From: a virus
IMG/VR virus record: IMGVR_UViG_3300038427_000078
Length of the DNA stretch: 64,000 bases
Reading direction: 5' to 3' (one strand)
The position numbers and the translations under genes are program-made. The notes beneath the pieces are model-generated. The model had not been told where the DNA came from. It saw only the letters and a program-made list of their open reading frames with translations, and ran no database searches. Positions 5,282 to 56,922 of this stretch are shown in pieces. Numbering within the stretch: position 1 is the first letter of the stretch; each line of letters opens with the position of its first letter.

Positions 5282-5949
5282 TCAAGCTCCTCCGGTTTGG
5301 GTTTACGTGGAGACTCTAGCCGGTAGCTGAGCTTGCCCGGTAGGATGTACTCCTGCACCTTCTGATAGTCCTCCTCACGCAAGTCCTCGAAGGGGCGGAG
5401 CAAGCGGACGAACTCGTCGCGGTTGTCTGTGCAGAATTTCCTCACCTGATACGCGATGCCCTCGCCACCAATCTCCTTGGCGAGTCTCCATAGAAGCTGT
5501 TCCTCGGGCGAGGTAGTGATGCGCAGCCAGAGAAGCGGGTCATCCTCCTTGAGCGAGGCGTCGTCAAGGTAGGGTGAACCCTGGACCACGTTGCGCTGGA
5601 AGATGGTCTTGCGATCCTTGCTGATGTAGGTGTACTTCATCCACGCAGGATCCTCTTCGACAAGAACCTGGAAGGGTTCGTCCTCAATCTTGACGATCTT
5701 CCATTCCGGGTGGAAGCGATGGACGTAGGTTTCAACCTCTTCGTTCGTGGCGATGATACCCATGCCCGGAGCTTCGGTCGGGATCATGATCGTCCTGGTG
5801 GCTCGGGACTGGACTTCTAGTCGCTCGGTAGCCGCCGCGAAGAACTCGATGCGTGCGTCCTCTAGCTCTTTGGCCTCTTCCTTCTGCCCGGAGTGGTGCT
5901 TCTTCACCGCTTTGGTGACCTTCTCGATGTCGAAGTCGAACTCAGTCAA
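5278..5949 (-). CDS. Hypothetical protein
   Basis: TTG start preceded by AAGGAG. Confidence 0.6.
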   Translation of the reverse strand: MTEFDFDIEKVTKAVKKHHSGQKEEAKELEDARIEFFAAATERLEVQSRATRTIMIPTEAPGMGIIATNEEVETYVHRFHPEWKIVKIEDEPFQVLVEEDPAWMKYTYISKDRKTIFQRNVVQGSPYLDDASLKEDDPLLWLRITTSPEEQLLWRLAKEIGGEGIAYQVRKFCTDNRDEFVRLLRPFEDLREEDYQKVQEYILPGKLSYRLESPRKPKPEELE

Positions 5950-6259
5950 CGTACTCTGTCTCCTTGATTGTCTCGTCCCCACACCGAGGACAGATGTGAT
6001 GCTCAGCCTGGTCCGGGGTCTGTTGCTCCGGTCCATCAAGCTGATGCCATCGGCAGAGTATATCAAACGCCTGTTGCTGGTGTTTGCAGTGGCCTCGGAA
6101 GAGGAACGACTCGCACTCGCAGATCAACTCGTCCACGGTGTCATCAGGCCAGGCTACTTTGACGCGGTAGACGACACCGGGTTTGGACCCGGAGGGAATG
6201 TCGATTTCGAACCACGGCTCAGCGCTGACGCAGTGTTGAACCTGCACCAAATCACTCAT
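5942..6259 (-). CDS. SWIM zinc-finger protein
   Basis: YRV...ICECESFLFRGHCKH plus a CxxC; TGCTATAGT lies just upstream of the ATG. Confidence 0.75.
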   Translation of the reverse strand: MSDLVQVQHCVSAEPWFEIDIPSGSKPGVVYRVKVAWPDDTVDELICECESFLFRGHCKHQQQAFDILCRWHQLDGPEQQTPDQAEHHICPRCGDETIKETEYVD

Positions 6260-6544
6260 GACTCCGCACTATAGCAGGGTCGCTTGCCACTCCAATCCTC
6301 GGTTACACGCCCGCGATGTGCGCAAGTCTTAGTCTCTTGTCTTCTCTTCCAGCAAAAGGGCAAGTTTAGTCCCAAGTATACACTGTGTTTTCTCTAGGTT
6401 CTCCAAGGGGTTCTGGAAGTTTGGTGTCAGTACCTATACCAATCTTGCCCTCATGCGCCATGCTAGCACACGCGCGAGGATCCTTCAACCCCTCGGACCC
6501 AGCAAGGTCGTTGGGCACTCTCTGCTATGCTGAAACGCAGCGTA

Positions 6545-8970: not shown

Positions 8971-9202
8971 AGCGAGAGTACATCGAGGACTGACCTTCAA
9001 CATTGGTCCGATCCGTATTCTGGTGACAGACGTGCGTAACGAGACTGCCTCGGTGCATGTGATCTTCAACAACGAGACAACCCTCGGGGCTGGTCAGGCA
9101 TGTCCGGTTGAGAGCATCGAACGTCTGCTCAACTGGTACGAGAAACTACAGATCGCCATGGTGAATGATGGCATCGACCTAGCGACGGTGGTGTCAGAAT
9201 GA
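8963..9202 (+). CDS. Hypothetical protein
   Basis: ORF in operon. Confidence 0.5.
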   Translation: MPRARVHRGLTFNIGPIRILVTDVRNETASVHVIFNNETTLGAGQACPVESIERLLNWYEKLQIAMVNDGIDLATVVSE

Positions 9203-9332
9203 CTTTCCTCTGGCTCGTCGTGTGGCTGCTCAGCAGCACCCCGGACGTGAGCTTCGCTCACGGTAACGGGTGGGCTATCTCACTCGGCATCTGTGCCTTC
9301 CTTGACATCGTGGGAAGTCGCGAGGCCACCAA

Positions 9333-19572: not shown

Positions 19573-19645
19573 GCCCTTGTAGCTCAGAGGATAGAGCATC
19601 GGTTTCCTAAACCGTGTGTCGCGGGTTCGATTCCCTCCGGTGCCA
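19573..19645 (+). pseudogene. tRNA-Arg(CCT) with non-pairing 3' acceptor strand
   Basis: Loop TTCCTAA intact; GCCCTTG pairs poorly with CGGTGCC. Confidence 0.65.
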
Positions 19646-19661
19646 TGGTATACTGTTGGGT

Positions 19662-20003
19662 ATGAGTGATCAAGACCTAACAGAGCAGCAAGTAGTGGCT
19701 GCGGAGGCCGGTGTCGGAGACAGCATACAGGCCATCGCGGACCGCGCAGTCAAGGCCGTCGAGGTACTGGACTTGAGCGAGGGCGATGTTCTCGTAGTCA
19801 AGCTCGGCATCGATGACATGGGTGACGGACTCCCACCGTGGATTCCGGGACCAGCGGAGCTAGAGCAGGTGTCAGATGCCTTGACCGCGACAGTGCCAGA
19901 GGGCGTACGGGTGCTAGTTCACCACCTGGGAATCAACTTCCAGATCGTACGCGGCCTCGACACCAGTAACCCGGTCGTAGTCGAATCGCTGCCAACAGAG
20001 TAA
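19662..20003 (+). CDS. Stand-alone paralog of an internal portal segment
   Basis: KLGIDDMGDGLPPWIPGPAELEQV vs portal KLGIMDMGDGLPPWLPGPEELESV. Confidence 0.8.
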   Translation: MSDQDLTEQQVVAAEAGVGDSIQAIADRAVKAVEVLDLSEGDVLVVKLGIDDMGDGLPPWIPGPAELEQVSDALTATVPEGVRVLVHHLGINFQIVRGLDTSNPVVVESLPTE

Positions 20004-35489: not shown

Positions 35490-35533
35490 TAGGGAAGGCT
35501 CCAAGTGGGGTCAAATCAACGACGTAAGTATTG

Positions 35534-38254
35534 ATGGCTGACGAGAACCAACTACTACGGGCAGAGCTAGACAAACTCCGTAGACACGGGATGACTCTTC
35601 CGCGTCACAGCGGACGCGCTGCTCAGTCTTACGGCGAGGCAGTTCACACGAATCACGCGCTTCTACAGGCGGCAGGGCATGACCTAGACCGCCTCGGAGT
35701 CAGGCTTGGGCGCAGCATCACGCAGGACAACTACGATTCGTCAGTCAAGAACATGCTGGGCGAGAACCAGGCCAAGATGCAGGCCATGCAGAGCAAACGC
35801 AGCATGAGCTATCGCAGCCAGGGAGCTAGCCCGCACCTGGGCGCAAGCCGTCGTGAGCACTACCGCATGTCAGCGGTTGACCACCAATCCAACTTCGGTG
35901 GAAACCCCGGCGTCGGAACCTCGACAGGAGGCGATGCCTACAACGCCATCCCGCGTTTCTACGATCCGCTTGAGTATTGGGACATCAGCGGCCTGCCGTG
36001 GAATGTTGCGGACGAAGGCCATCGTCACAAGCTCCACAAGTGGCTGCGCTTGTACTACGCCACCCACTACCTCGTCCCGATCCTGATCGACATCTTCACC
36101 CGCTTCCCGCTCGTCGGCATGGAGCTTGAGTGCAAGGATCCGAAGCTCAAAGAAGTGTACGAGTCGATCTTCCTCGACAACCTCAAATACGAAGACTTCC
36201 TCGTTGGCCTCGGTCGCGAGTATTGGGTCGTCGGAGAGGCGTTCCCTCTCGCGTCCTTTGATGAGGACTTGGGCGTGTGGGAGCATGAGGAGTTGATCAA
36301 CCCCGAGGACATCGTGATCAACAACTTCCCGTTCCTCAACTCCAAGCAGTTGAAGATCGCTCCGCCCGACTACCTCAAGCGCATCGCACAGACCAAGCTC
36401 CCGGCTCGCGAGTATTACCTCCTGCGCGAGAACTTCGAGGACTTGATCCCGTACTTGCTCAAGGGTGAACACATCCCGATCAGCCCGGTGATGATGCGCC
36501 ACGTCGCCAACAAGATGAACAATTGGGACGACCACGGCACCCCGATTCTTCTACGCGGCATGCGAACCTTGCTCCATGAGGAAAAGCTCATGGCCTCGCA
36601 GGAAGCCATCGCTGAGCGTCTGTACTCGCCGTTGATCCTCGCCAAGCTAGGGATCATGGACATGGGCGACGGCCTCCCGCCGTGGCTCCCCGGCCCGGAA
36701 GAGCTTGAGTCCGTCCGTGACGACCTCGACATCGCGCTGTCATCTGACTTCCGCGTCATGGTCCACCACTTCGGCCTTGAGATTTCCAACGTGTTCGGGC
36801 GCGAGCAGATGCCTCGCCTGGGCGACGACTTCGACCGCATCGAGCGCAGGCTCATGCAGGTGTTCGGCGTGAACCCGTCACTGCTCTCAGCGGGCAGCAA
36901 CACACAGCCGTACGCCTCTAGCGCGCTACAAGCCGAGTTCATGAACCAGATCCTCCGCACGTTCCAGGGCATGCTCAAGGAGCACTACCGCGAGCGTGCT
37001 CTCGTCGTGGCTGAGGCGCAGGGCCACTACGACTACGAGACAAAGGGTGACACACGCATCCCGATTTGGGAAAAAGTCGCCATCACCGACGAGGAGACAG
37101 GTGAGCGTCACATCGAGGAGGTACAGAAGCTCCTGGTCCCGGACCTCAAGTTCGCGACCTTCGACATGCGCGACCAGGCTACCGAGCGTCAGTTCCTCAT
37201 GGCCCTCCGTCAGATGGGCGTCCCGATCCCGAACGAGGATCTGCTCATCGGCATCGACTGGAACTACCGCGAAAAGGTCTTGCAGTACAACCGCGAGTTG
37301 AAGGAGCAGACCATCGCTCAGCAGCGCGCGAAGCTCGACACCTACATCGCTCTCGCCACGCAGGGACTCCCGATCCCGCTCGACCTCAAGGCCGAGGTTG
37401 AGTCCGTGCTAGTCCACGGAGCAGGCGCAGGTGGGGGTATGCCCGAAGGCGGCGGTGGAGGCATGGCAGGAGCACAGCAGCAGAAACCAGGCGGCATGCC
37501 CGGATCAGTTGGTCCTGCCGGTGGCCCGCCTGAACTTGGACCTCCTGGCGGCGGTGGTGGAGGCATCAACATGCCGCCTCCGCCTCCTGGCCTTGGCTCA
37601 GGACCGGGCACCGCGCCTCCTGGCGGCGGAGCACCGGCAGCTAGCCCGATGGCTCCTGGTCCCGCAGGCACCGTCCCGCAGGTGAGCAACGAGCGTCGTC
37701 CTGGCCTGAAATACAACACGTCGAACCAGGGCCACCCGATCATCGGTGCTCGCGAGGGCAGCGACTTCGATCAGTTCATGGCCGACTACCCCGACCTGGG
37801 CCTCCCGTTCGTGGACTACGTGGCCGACAACACAGAGGACGAGCTAGACAAGATCGACCGTGGTACCCTGCTATCGTTGAGCAAGGCATGGCCGAAGAAT
37901 GCAGCAGCATACCAGCACAAGGTTGCAGAGGAGGTCGCGGTATATCTCGCGAACACCCCGGATTCAGAGCCGGAGCCTGCTAAAGTAGAGCCACCAGTTG
38001 AGTTCACACTCAAGGCGAATCAGGAGCTACGGAAAGTAAAGGGTGAGCCAGATCGCATCATCGAGACACCTTCCAAGAAACGGATCAAGCACAAGGTCGC
38101 GACTGACAAGAAGTACACTGTCGTTGACCCGGTGGAAAAGCCGCTTCGTGTAACACCCGAGGAAGAAGCCAAGCTCCGCAAGGCGTATTTCAAGGCCAAC
38201 AAGATACCACTACCAAAGGATGAGAATGAGTCAACCGAGCCAAAGTCCTCTTGA
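35534..38254 (+). CDS. Portal protein with Gly/Pro-rich C-terminal extension
   Basis: Size and context after TerL; REYWVVGEAF, HGTPILLR, VFGVNPSLL. Confidence 0.8.
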   Translation: MADENQLLRAELDKLRRHGMTLPRHSGRAAQSYGEAVHTNHALLQAAGHDLDRLGVRLGRSITQDNYDSSVKNMLGENQAKMQAMQSKRSMSYRSQGASPHLGASRREHYRMSAVDHQSNFGGNPGVGTSTGGDAYNAIPRFYDPLEYWDISGLPWNVADEGHRHKLHKWLRLYYATHYLVPILIDIFTRFPLVGMELECKDPKLKEVYESIFLDNLKYEDFLVGLGREYWVVGEAFPLASFDEDLGVWEHEELINPEDIVINNFPFLNSKQLKIAPPDYLKRIAQTKLPAREYYLLRENFEDLIPYLLKGEHIPISPVMMRHVANKMNNWDDHGTPILLRGMRTLLHEEKLMASQEAIAERLYSPLILAKLGIMDMGDGLPPWLPGPEELESVRDDLDIALSSDFRVMVHHFGLEISNVFGREQMPRLGDDFDRIERRLMQVFGVNPSLLSAGSNTQPYASSALQAEFMNQILRTFQGMLKEHYRERALVVAEAQGHYDYETKGDTRIPIWEKVAITDEETGERHIEEVQKLLVPDLKFATFDMRDQATERQFLMALRQMGVPIPNEDLLIGIDWNYREKVLQYNRELKEQTIAQQRAKLDTYIALATQGLPIPLDLKAEVESVLVHGAGAGGGMPEGGGGGMAGAQQQKPGGMPGSVGPAGGPPELGPPGGGGGGINMPPPPPGLGSGPGTAPPGGGAPAASPMAPGPAGTVPQVSNERRPGLKYNTSNQGHPIIGAREGSDFDQFMADYPDLGLPFVDYVADNTEDELDKIDRGTLLSLSKAWPKNAAAYQHKVAEEVAVYLANTPDSEPEPAKVEPPVEFTLKANQELRKVKGEPDRIIETPSKKRIKHKVATDKKYTVVDPVEKPLRVTPEEEAKLRKAYFKANKIPLPKDENESTEPKSS

Positions 38255-53664: not shown

Positions 53665-54054
53665 ATGCTTGTGAAGCTCATCGCCACAGTCGCGTTCGCG
53701 CCGTTCTTCCACCACGCGCCCAAACCGCGTCGTCATCACCACCGGAGTCAGCCCTCTTTCGAGGTAGCCGGGGCGACATCGACGTTCGGCTACCCCGCCG
53801 AAGGCCCAGGACAGACCGCAGATGGAGGGACCACCGAGCGGCCCTGCATCGCCATCCGCGACGACCGTACTCTAGGCCACTGGTTCAAGGTCACGGTCGA
53901 TGGGCGCACTGCCCGCCTGCTTCACTGCGATTGGGGACCGGCTAGCTGGACAGGACGGGCCATTGACATCACGGGCGAAGGCGTACGCGCGTTGGGGTTC
54001 AGCCAAGCGGGATACCCGACCGGCGCAGTAGGAGTTGCGAGGGAGTTGGGATAA
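53665..54054 (+). CDS. RlpA-like double-psi beta-barrel protein, probably secreted
   Basis: TADG...DWGP...RAIDIT. Confidence 0.65.
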   Translation: MLVKLIATVAFAPFFHHAPKPRRHHHRSQPSFEVAGATSTFGYPAEGPGQTADGGTTERPCIAIRDDRTLGHWFKVTVDGRTARLLHCDWGPASWTGRAIDITGEGVRALGFSQAGYPTGAVGVARELG

Positions 54055-54629
54055 TGCGTTCTGGCTTTCGAGGCGTTACGTGGAGTAAGACTCACGGCAA
54101 GTGGCTCGCGAGCGTCAAAGTCGATGGCAAGCACGTCTACTTGGGTGTGTACGAGGACGCAGCCGACGCCGGGATAGCCGCCAGTGACTTCCGTCTACAG
54201 ATGGCGATCCCGCGCAAGGTCATTCAGCGTCGGGCGAACGCGGATCGTTCACGCGGAGTCAAACGGCACAAGGAAAAGCTCGACCCCGTGGTAGCGCGAG
54301 CTATCGCTCTCAAGGGCCACGCCGTGCGCAAACAGTCGGGATGCCTTCACCCCGACAACAAGAGCGGCATCACGGGTATCAGTTGGAACAGCAAGCGTAA
54401 CCGATGGTTCGTCCAGGTGCGCGACAAGGATGGTGTCAAGAAACGGCTTGGCTCGTACAAGGACTTGGACGAGGCGAAGCGCATGGCAGAAGCGTTCTAC
54501 GAGACAGGCGAAGATCCTCGCTTGACATCTGCGGGCATGAGACAGGGTTGGCTCCCAAGGACTCCTGCGAACACGTCTGCGGCGATTGCGAGGGCACGCG
54601 CAACGAGCTTGACGGCCACCCATGCCTGA
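54054..54629 (+). CDS. Two-AP2-domain DNA-binding protein
   Basis: SGFRGVTW...KW...YLG; NKSGITGISW...RW...LG. Confidence 0.8.
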   Translation: MRSGFRGVTWSKTHGKWLASVKVDGKHVYLGVYEDAADAGIAASDFRLQMAIPRKVIQRRANADRSRGVKRHKEKLDPVVARAIALKGHAVRKQSGCLHPDNKSGITGISWNSKRNRWFVQVRDKDGVKKRLGSYKDLDEAKRMAEAFYETGEDPRLTSAGMRQGWLPRTPANTSAAIARARATSLTATHA

Positions 54630-54936
54630 CGTGTGGAGGCACCGGCCTCCGCTCGCGGTTCTTCAACGAGTTGGTGGCGGAGTCTAGCTGATGGAGGATC
54701 GACGCTATGAGTTCTCGCCCACAGGTGGTCGGGCCGATGCTATCGCCAAGGTCATCGCGACCATCGAGGCGGCGAGCCATCTGAACCTCCCATTCACGGT
54801 CACGACCGAGAAGGGCGAACACTTCCGCAACGGCGGCAACGTCAACAAGGCCACGATCCTCAGCTATCACGTCGTGGTCGGCAACAAGATGTCGCCTGAG
54901 CTTGACAAGCACGGGAACCCCTGCTAAGGTACAGCT

Positions 54937-55419
54937 ATGACCGCTATCCAAGACATCAAAACCACCCTTGAGAACCGTCTAGAGCTTCTAGACTATGCCT
55001 GCGAACAGGAGAGGCCCGGTACCGCTGCGTTCGATGAACTGTGCGGTCGCCACGAAGAGAGCAAGACCATGTTGGAGCTAGTCAACTACTTCGCCACGAC
55101 TCGCGAGGACGTTGAAGATGAGGCTCCCGCCTACTGCGACTGCGACGAGTGCGCCTGCGAGTACGACGAGGACGACTTGGACATCAGTCTCACCATCGAC
55201 GGCTCCGAGGTAGTCTCCCTGGACGAGTTCCAAGAGATTCGTGCCTACAACTACGAGCTTGCCATTCGCACTCTTGTCCAGCAGGAGGCGAAGCTGTCAA
55301 CCTATTGGGCGCTCAAAGAGCTAGGTCTACCGATCCCGTACGACCTACGCAACGAGTGCTGGCCGCTCGACCCGGACAATCCTGACAACCAGCCTCGCGG
55401 CACGTCCTGGCAGCCCTAG
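54937..55419 (+). CDS. Protein with a copy of a portal C-terminal segment
   Basis: YNYELAIRTLVQQEAKLSTYWALKELGLPIPYDL vs portal YNRELKEQTIAQQRAKLDTYIALATQGLPIPLDL. Confidence 0.75.
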   Translation: MTAIQDIKTTLENRLELLDYACEQERPGTAAFDELCGRHEESKTMLELVNYFATTREDVEDEAPAYCDCDECACEYDEDDLDISLTIDGSEVVSLDEFQEIRAYNYELAIRTLVQQEAKLSTYWALKELGLPIPYDLRNECWPLDPDNPDNQPRGTSWQP

Positions 55420-55822
55420 AGTGTATCTAGTAGAAGTCGCCCCTCAACGGTGGACCGTCCGCGAGCAGAAGCCCAAAGCGGGCAAACACTCTGCGCACAC
55501 CAAGATCCTTGGGACCATCGAGTTCCATGAGTTCTGGACGTACAAGAACGGTGTGAGGGTGCAATCTGGCTTCTGGATCGCACGGCCACCTGACCACGGC
55601 TGGAAGGAAACCGGCTGGAAGAAGGTCGAGAGCAAGGACGCTGCTCTCAAGTTCCTCAAGGACCGAGCGAAGAAGTGAAGCGGGTTGCCATTACTGGCAC
55701 CCGTGTCCACAAGGACGCCAAGACGCTTGAAGATGACATCCGAGACTGTAGGTACGCTTGTCATAGTGACCTAGCTTTATACGCCACTTGAGCTTTGTAC
55801 GTCGAGCGCACAATAATAGACG

Positions 55823-56173
55823 ATGAGTGAGTCAAACGTAGCGGATGTTGCAACACAACTTGAGCTTGAGCGGGTCGAACGAGCACGGGTATTAGCTGCC
55901 GGAGAGCGCGATAGAGAAATCGTGGCGGCTGAAAAGCGGGCGAGATATGAAGCCCTTGTTGAGGCACGTCTCGATGGATATGACGAGCATTTCAAGATCA
56001 TCAATGGCTCCATCGGTCGTACGGCTGATGCGCTAGAAGCGCTCAAGATCAGCCTCAATGCCGCGACAGCAGAGAAAAAAGCCATTGTTGGACTACAGAC
56101 ACGACAGATCGCAGCGCTTGCGACCATAGCCACACTCTTGTATGTGGTCCTCAGCTTGATAGGACACGCATGA
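55823..56173 (+). CDS. Coiled-coil protein with C-terminal TM
   Basis: Hydrophobic C-terminus. Confidence 0.6.
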   Translation: MSESNVADVATQLELERVERARVLAAGERDREIVAAEKRARYEALVEARLDGYDEHFKIINGSIGRTADALEALKISLNAATAEKKAIVGLQTRQIAALATIATLLYVVLSLIGHA

Positions 56174-56319
56174 GTTACTCAGAGAATTCCTCTCACTGAC
56201 TGTAACGCCACTCGGACTCGCTGTATTCAACGGCGTGACCATGCTGGTAGCAGCCGACCTATGGCATCGCAAACATCACTGAGGGATCAAATCACCGGGG
56301 TTCTCGGACGTAATAGACG

Positions 56320-56922
56320 ATGAGTGCATCTCGCGTCCAAATCCCTATAGTCGTCCAGTCGCTCGTTGAAGTCGAAACGGTCGAAAAAGTCGCGGTCAAG
56401 GTCGTTGTCCCTGTCCATGAAGCCAAAGTCGAAATCAAACGACGCGATGGCAACCCGATCAAAGTCTACGAAACGGAGTCCGGGGCGGAAATCTCGAACA
56501 AACTGCTCACGGACACTAACGGACAGGTCAAAGCATGGGTCGAAGAAGGCCCATATCTCATCACCGCAGAAGGCGGCGAACCAAACATCGCCCTCACCAA
56601 CTACACCTTCGACGCCATCACGGGTCGGGGTGTTGAACACGTTGCGGATGAAGTCGTTGCCCTCACCGACCTCGTATTGGCCCAGCAGAGCTTCTTTGTC
56701 CCCATCGGCACTGTGTTGCTCTACGGTGGAGAAGCCGCAGCGCCTCCTACGGGGTTCCTGACGTGCTCCGGGCAGGAAGTGGCGCAGGCGACCTACCCCG
56801 TCCTGTATGGTAAACTGAAAGCTAAATATGGATCAGCTTCCGCAGGTAACTTCCGCCTCCCTACTGGCCTCATCGAAAACGTCGCGAAACAGACGTTCGT
56901 TTCCATCATACGTCACGACTGA
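56320..56922 (+). CDS. Tail-collar domain protein
   Basis: VPIGTVLLY...PTGFLTCSGQ...YPVLY...FRLP. Confidence 0.8.
   Translation: MSASRVQIPIVVQSLVEVETVEKVAVKVVVPVHEAKVEIKRRDGNPIKVYETESGAEISNKLLTDTNGQVKAWVEEGPYLITAEGGEPNIALTNYTFDAITGRGVEHVADEVVALTDLVLAQQSFFVPIGTVLLYGGEAAAPPTGFLTCSGQEVAQATYPVLYGKLKAKYGSASAGNFRLPTGLIENVAKQTFVSIIRHD

Follow-up and report, generated by a model that had tools for sequence, protein, structure and literature searches.

A protein of 160 amino acids (P0001), encoded by a large uncultured soil phage, contains near its C-terminus a free copy of a short piece of the phage's own portal protein. This module of 43 residues, a predicted helix-turn-helix, is homologous to the last two helices of the conserved portal core, which probably belong to the portal crown, and it keeps the residues that are invariant among portals. 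We propose, at a probability of roughly one in three, that the protein is an accessory soluble mimic, a decoy or sponge that would compete for a factor recognizing this invariant part of the crown. The window, by which we mean the whole stretch of 64,000 nucleotides analysed here, is part of the phage genome, has a GC content of about 58% and carries 28 tRNA genes and a tmRNA at 12.7-23.9 kb. Within it, the ORF list places the gene on the plus strand at 54937..55419, with an ATG start. Judged by its conservation it is a real gene: a relative, contig L045, keeps both the gene and its promoter at the equivalent position. At least 15 metagenome contigs encode P0001, and the longest of them, ERZ4200889 NODE_91, has 172,635 nt. 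The DNA of the gene was identical on all ten contigs fetched out of the 15 with the protein; these ten represent one strain and are uninformative on population variation.

The earlier note on this DNA had claimed that the C-terminal segment of the protein matches the portal, and had proposed pairwise alignment statistics as a check. The claim was borne out. Residues 99-140 aligned without gaps to portal residues 581-622, with 22 of 42 positions identical and 28 of 42 positive (BLASTP, E 4e-10 in a single comparison), and the match stayed significant after allowing for the roughly counted 5000 possible ORF pairs in the window. An exhaustive HMMER search of 1.84 billion representatives retrieved the portal homologue P0006 at E 1.4e-4 via query residues 100-142. 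This database-wide match runs through the same 43 residues; the similarity reflects homology and not chance. A profile of the small proteins matched every portal tested, at about 1e-14 to 1e-19. At the nucleotide level the module and the portal segment are only 56% identical, which indicates that the copy is old and has survived. Likeness to a full-length portal was not found: only residues 99-140 align, and the model of the protein consists of a hairpin, a disordered linker and a helix. A second collinear match to the portal (residues 79-88 against portal 397-406, 7 of 10 identical) had an E of 0.27, was absent from the relative P0002 and was rejected as chance. The 160-aa protein had no PHROG or Pfam hit, portal families included, its model no significant match in BFVD or the ESM Atlas, and searches of cultured-phage records with DNA or protein gave no match.

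The protein is divided into four parts, all encoded on the plus strand. Residues 1-52 (54937..55092) form an N-terminal domain predicted to be a helical hairpin, with an invariant C22, C36 and G37-R38 pair. They are followed by an acidic, Cys-rich linker (residues 53-98, 55093..55230) with a C-x-C-xx-C-x-C cluster at 67-74 (C67, C69, C72 and C74), by the portal-crown-like module (residues 99-141, 55231..55359), in which an LPIP turn joins a long helix to a short one that ends in E-C, and by a Pro/Asp-rich tail (residues 142-160, 55360..55416), which was not conserved in the alignment and is predicted to be disordered. The AF2 model (mean pLDDT 59.8) placed the hairpin helices at 3-24 and 30-61 with pLDDT values of 64-79, left the linker disordered up to a small beta-hairpin at 84-94, and gave the module a long helix at 95-129, the LPIP turn and a short helix at 135-141. 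The fusion to an unrelated, acidic and Cys-containing N-terminus, which the earlier note had described, was confirmed: this part carries the Cys cluster and shows no likeness to the portal.

P0002 (156 aa) is the only full-length relative of P0001 and is encoded at the equivalent position in L045, upstream of a homologue of the 85-aa gene that follows the 160-aa gene. The two proteins are 40% identical, whereas flanking proteins of the same phage pair are 67-84% identical. Their first 52 and last ~45 residues are kept; the middle could not be aligned, with CxC clusters present in both. The N-terminal domain is also found alone, in the complete genes P0004 (55 aa) and P0003 (69 aa), and the positional counterparts in G003, G004 and G005 are homologous to it (hhalign probability 82%, E 1e-5) and end in a different, QQRGDWP-type tail. 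As the domain thus occurs alone or with other tails in relatives, the alignments indicate that the hairpin is the older part of the protein and that the C-terminus was exchanged for, or lengthened by, the portal-like module before the window phage and L045 diverged. A separate crown-type small gene was absent from the four complete relatives. Estimates of dN/dS (inputs 0.34/2.08 for the N-domain and 0.44/0.73 for the module) come from short regions with saturated dS; the value of about 0.6 for the 43 codons of the module, with dS near saturation, is only weakly informative on selection.

The portal gene itself (35531..38254, plus strand, likely true start ATG at 35534) encodes 907 amino acids and belongs to phrog_2833 (E 5.7e-149). 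Its segment resembling the module, residues 581-622 (37271..37396, plus strand), comprises the final two helices of the conserved core. The nearest cultured relatives, at about 40% identity, are the portals of Mycobacterium cluster C (Bxz1-like), Gordonia and Rhodococcus myophages. Among cultured phages as a whole, the Bxz1-like ones of Mycobacterium smegmatis form the nearest group. In the PDB, no solved relative of the portal was detected, low-complexity matches being all that sequence and profile searches returned. The AF2 model of the core was poor (mean pLDDT 44.5), and Foldseek found no PDB match to it at E <= 0.001. When this poor model (pLDDT 44.5) was compared all-against-all with VIA-align, portals ranked top, with Z values of 6.7 for Sf11, 6.6 for 80alpha, 6.4 for SPP1 gp6 and 5.1 for T4 gp20. 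The gp20 alignment extended to model residue 505 and chain residue 515, within the gp20 crown (451-524), which consists of three helices with short turns and is the innermost part of the portal (PMC4493910). The order of the elements in our model, a 46-residue helix, three strands (the wing) and then three terminal helices, fits this placement. From the gp20 alignment and this order of elements we tentatively assign portal residues 579-628 to the crown, with moderate confidence.

Extra copies of the motif in the portal, at about residues 549-569 and at 880-898, were rejected (HMMER domain scores of 2.4 and -3.6, not significant), and BLAST between the two crown halves of the portal found nothing. 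The C-terminal tail that holds residues 880-898 (38170-38226) loosely resembles the crown motif (EAKL...K-IPLP-KD; BLAST E 0.36), a resemblance that is absent from the tails of all related portals. Inteins were observed in phrog_2833-type portals at two different sites: the 985-aa portal of L030 (9986-12940) has a mini-intein (Pfam Intein_splicing, E 1.3e-11) just 5' of the first crown helix, and the P0006 portal has a LAGLIDADG intein in the wing region. The portal region of G001 (L019, 10001-12056) gave a tblastn match with 24 stops in one frame and a first open frame of 88 aa; elsewhere an 870-aa open frame spans the crown, and the gene may contain an insertion or a frame change near its 5' end.

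The module was also found by itself in two other phage contigs with unrelated gene contexts. P0005 (63 aa) is encoded among small genes on L046, and P0009 (44 aa) on L054, where its gene overlaps the recA stop codon and lies 3' of a PolIII-alpha gene; the L054 contig has 46% GC, and its RecA is 27-31% identical to the RecA of the relatives of the window. All four small proteins (<200 aa), P0001, P0002, P0005 and P0009, fit the motif T-[IL]-x-QQ-x-AK-[LM]-x-x-Y-x-x-LK-x-x-[GA]-LPIP-x-DL-x-x-E. Invariant in the three that were aligned are T, QQ, AK, Y, L, LPIP, DL and E, and these positions are unchanged in P0009 and in all but one of 22 portals, the exception being the portal of L011, in which T replaces the A of AK. 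On the helix the invariant positions follow an i, i+3/4, i+7 stripe with polar flanks, a pattern which suggests that one packing face has been retained and not mere helicity. The four small proteins share LK and LPIP, most portals AL[TAV] and LPVP. The small proteins are about equally distant from every portal and from each other, with 16-25 of 41 positions identical in every direction, values that are compatible with a single as well as with a repeated origin of the module in small proteins. As far as the searches reach, the small-protein form is rare and patchy. The four proteins were the only small ones with the module among 1.8 to 5.8 billion proteins, a scan of IMG/VR with the mini-protein profile returned portals only, and a search of short proteins with the portal segment returned only cut portal pieces.

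The regulation of the gene appears to differ from that of the portal. The promoter-like TTGACA-N17-TAAGGT, which the earlier note had pointed out, is present on the plus strand at 54902..54930 and ends 6 nt 5' of the ATG; its first hexamer lies within the last codons of the upstream 78-aa gene, and a TGC immediately precedes the second hexamer. It is a member of an enriched class: TTGACA-N16-18-TAnnnT occurred 9 times in the window against 0.6 expected. With TTGAC[AT] as first hexamer, seven sites, that of the 160-aa gene being one of them, lay 6-7 nt ahead of the start codon (ATG) of an ORF encoding 59-217 aa. This short distance between promoter element and ATG implies a leaderless mRNA for the 160-aa gene and its class, as predicted from the motifs. 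The layout is matched in L045, where TTGACA-N17-TAAGAT-N6-ATG precedes the orthologue. The portal start carries a different motif, TAA-N4-YG-ATG (14 in the window against 1.9 expected; portal copy at 35525-35536), which is also found at the 116-aa and tail-collar-domain genes just downstream of the 160-aa gene. At these two genes an identical 12-mer of this class, TAATAGACGATG, is fused to the start codons (55814-55825 and 56311-56322). With a TTGACA promoter on one side and TAA-N4-YG-ATG on the other, the 160-aa protein would belong to another regulatory class than the portal and may be made earlier than the portal, which seems probable, or independently of it; we infer the early timing from the motif classes only.

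Directly downstream, an 85-aa protein is encoded at 55421..55678 (plus strand). Its GTG start follows the stop of the 160-aa gene after 2 nt, and the two genes are therefore probably co-transcribed. Homologues of the 85-aa protein, for which no family was found, are encoded directly 3' of the N-domain gene in L045, G003, G004 and G005, and not in L047. A strict pairing of the N-domain and 85-aa genes was rejected, as it fails in L047 and as the 84-aa homologue in G001 follows a pentapeptide-repeat gene. Upstream, the window at 54054-54629, like L045 at 5871-6398 and L043 at 9009-9248, encodes a protein that has two AP2 domains but lacks a nuclease domain; its PHROG matches are the DNA-binding parts of HNH endonucleases, and its gene takes different positions in the variable region among relatives. 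A small leaderless gene behind a TTGACA-type promoter was observed at 53665-54054 of the window and at 5584-5919 of L045. Inspected by eye, the product looks similar to cell-wall-binding domains of the 3D/RlpA-like (double-psi beta-barrel) type, with no Pfam hit at E 0.01.

Another gene with a portal fragment, of the clip type, is located at 19662..20003 on the plus strand. Its product copies portal residues 368-423 (30 of 56 identical, BLASTP E 1e-18), in agreement with the earlier statement that the two genes hold different portal segments, 581-622 in the case of the 160-aa gene. It, too, lies behind sigma-70-like promoter elements with a leaderless-type start. Part of the idea of a portal-mimic strategy based on two excerpts thus stood, as both excerpts are real and similarly promoted. 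Their co-occurrence, which the earlier note had proposed as a check, is not strict: the complete relative G003 has a homologue of the 19662 gene and no crown-type gene. At 19575-19648 we observed a sequence that resembles a tRNA in its GGTTCGATTCC T-arm and its CCA-like end and was not called by ARAGORN; its acceptor strands are unpaired, and it overlaps the -35/-10 region of the 19662 gene (TGGTATACT at 19646-19654). Both fragment genes are near HNH or AP2 genes, and such genes are frequent in the genome. Carry-over by a homing endonuclease or an intein was rejected as the cause of the persistence of the 160-aa gene. The nearest protein of this kind is AP2-only, has no nuclease domain and is encoded two genes upstream, the adjacency is lost in L045, where the distance is three genes, and a nucleotide identity of 56% marks the copy as old. 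An origin as an intein extein was discarded as well, the two inteins of this portal family being inserted at other sites than the copied segment.

In the reading that we favour, the 160-aa protein would act as a soluble competitor. Its C-terminal 43 residues would be a free copy of the last helix-turn-helix of the portal crown, keeping one helix face (T, I/L, QQ, AK, L/M, Y, L), the LPIP turn and then D-L..E. As the retained positions are those invariant in portals, a surface that binds the crown element of the portal itself should accommodate the free copy too. The factor competed for would most likely be a host immune sensor, or else another hostile element that detects or exploits the portal. 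Transcription from a host-type (TTGACA), leaderless promoter would probably provide the protein before the portal or independently of it. The N-terminal hairpin and the Cys-rich linker, perhaps in concert with the 85-aa protein, might keep the protein soluble, make it oligomerise or give it a second function.

Several observations argue for such a competitor. The homology is significant both in the pairwise comparison and at database scale, and the module has been kept across the 40%-identical P0001 and P0002 and as stand-alone P0005 and P0009, its conserved positions in small proteins coinciding with the portal-invariant ones. Accessory nature, patchy distribution and fast evolution are traits expected of an anti-defence decoy, and the 160-aa gene displays them: it is absent from the four complete relatives, has counterparts with other C-termini as well as N-domain-only forms, and diverged to 40% identity against 67-84% for the flanking genes. 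Together with a promoter class that is unlike the portal's and conserved in L045, these traits are in line with a role in counter-defence. Portals, furthermore, are documented triggers of immunity: Avs4 and Avs11 respond to portals (PMC13581612), as does RAZR (PMC13017515), and the tail tube protein is another listed Avs target (PMC13581612). Other points weigh against this reading. The portal sensors cited above read large surfaces or whole folds (PMC13581612), for which a helix-turn-helix of 43 residues may be too small. Selection on the module is not firmly shown by a dN/dS of about 0.6, and no more than four small proteins carry the module in databases of this size, with none in IMG/VR.

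A further copy of the module, in a protein of the head module, seems to point as much to head assembly as to immunity. The mini-protein profile also matched one orthologous protein of 293-325 aa in four of four complete relatives, at E 6e-6 to 1.5e-3 per genome (G003, L064 5427-6308, minus strand; G001, L065 5171-6103, plus strand; G004, L061 802-1689, minus strand; G002, L063 727-1704, minus strand). The match, via Y-x-x-LK-x-x-G-[LA]-P-[IV]-P near the N-terminus, was supported by hhalign (probability 95%, E 3.6e-8) and represents a weaker copy of the module than that of the portal, to which the module is thus not exclusive. In the two neighbourhoods checked, G003 and G001, the gene for this ~300-aa protein lies 1.6-3 kb downstream of that for the major head protein, and in G003 a head protease belongs to the same run. 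The protein consists of a basic N-terminal tail, the crown-like motif, an acidic coiled-coil-like stretch and a conserved C-terminal domain, and had no PHROG, Pfam, NCBIfam, PDB or cultured-phage match.

The main rival of a soluble competitor, which we consider possible if rather unlikely, is accordingly that the module serves docking or regulation in head assembly. Its helix would pack on the portal crown or on the ~300-aa head protein and would either tether the N-terminal domain, perhaps with the 85-aa protein, at the portal vertex or delay premature portal assembly. Given that the T4 crown is built of helices linked by short turns in the innermost ring (PMC4493910), a free copy could plausibly intercalate, and the position of the 160-aa gene just upstream of late-type genes, that of the tail-collar-domain protein included, would suit such a role. 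A head-assembly function is however difficult to reconcile with a gene that is not part of the core, four complete relatives managing without a separate copy, with a promoter class that differs from those of the portal and of the adjacent late-type genes, with the fast divergence of the protein, and with the occurrence of one stand-alone form (P0009) in a replication cluster.

Neutral domain shuffling, whereby an unrelated small gene acquired a portal fragment at its 3' end and has since kept it as no more than a generic helix, with no role related to the portal, appears unlikely. The variability of the locus, where the C-terminus of the counterpart differs between lineages, and a dN/dS of the module that is not low would be compatible with it, and the many homing endonuclease genes, together with inteins at two sites in this portal family, make recombination near the portal gene plausible. 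Against this, the module has survived an overall divergence of ~60% and has kept portal-invariant polar residues (T, QQ, K, D, E) and not only helix formers, complete genes of 44 and 63 codons in other phages encode little else, and 56% nucleotide identity to the portal segment speaks for an old copy that survived. A weapon against related phages, i.e. an early crown fragment acting as a dominant-negative subunit that poisons the portal rings of relatives, whether co-infecting or resident, but is tolerated by the portal of its own phage, would fit with the early-type promoter, the patchy distribution, the fast evolution and the roughly equal similarity of the fragment to portals across the family (16-24 of 41 positions). 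It is quite improbable, as the fragment resembles the portal of its own phage (22 of 41) no less than any other and there is no visible basis for self-tolerance.

Whatever its role, the module is a kept and mobile 43-residue element of the probable crown that preserves the invariant face of the portal, carried here by an accessory, fast-evolving and probably early protein. Its occurrence in the portal, in a head-module protein, alone and fused to an unrelated small domain illustrates where a mimic may come from and how it may move, and it is short enough for direct study as a peptide or small protein. If the soluble competitor that we favour is real, a short, invariant and unstudied surface of the portal would be a contact point for host immunity or head assembly, and excerpts of a phage's own virion proteins would join the known ways by which phages build mimics. 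One may even speculate, and we hold this to be doubtful, that large phages keep an undescribed class of early mini-proteins which each present one invariant piece of a virion protein, in this genome the portal clip and the portal crown helix among them, and act as decoys against the pattern-recognition immunity of the host, namely Avs- or RAZR-type sensors that detect the portal, the tube or the capsid. The crown-helix module, free or fused, would then be one member, and the copied motif would mark the surface read by the sensor. In the literature searched, we found no publication that describes small phage proteins made of excerpts from virion proteins.

Compared with known systems, the 160-aa protein has features of several. 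Like phage anti-immunity decoys and sponges it is accessory, fast-evolving and apparently early, and it copies an invariant piece of a documented immune trigger; unlike them it is an excerpt of a virion protein, of which the literature searched gave no example among decoys, and we know of no sensor of the crown helix. Eukaryotic microProteins, or small interfering peptides, of which Id and LITTLE ZIPPER are examples, are small proteins in which nothing but the interaction domain is left of a larger oligomeric protein; they titrate that protein or its partners. The 160-aa protein likewise holds one interaction element excerpted from a larger protein of its own genome, the ring-forming portal with its several domains; it differs in being viral, in its fusion to an unrelated N-terminal domain and in being known here from sequence. 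With respect to the portals of tailed phages, the protein lacks clip, stem and wing, has 160 amino acids against 907 and no PHROG or Pfam portal hit, its gene has another promoter class, and the small proteins carry Lys (LK) where portals have A, T or V; its last 43 residues, however, align ungapped to the last two conserved-core helices of phrog_2833 portals, the region that would correspond to the crown (T4 gp20 451-524), and the same long helix, Pro turn and short helix are predicted in both. A further counterpart is the clip mini-protein at 19662-20003. It copies portal 368-423, is not fused to the same N-terminal domain and is represented by a homologue in G003, a genome that lacks the crown-type gene; in parent protein, promoter type and size class it agrees with the 160-aa protein.
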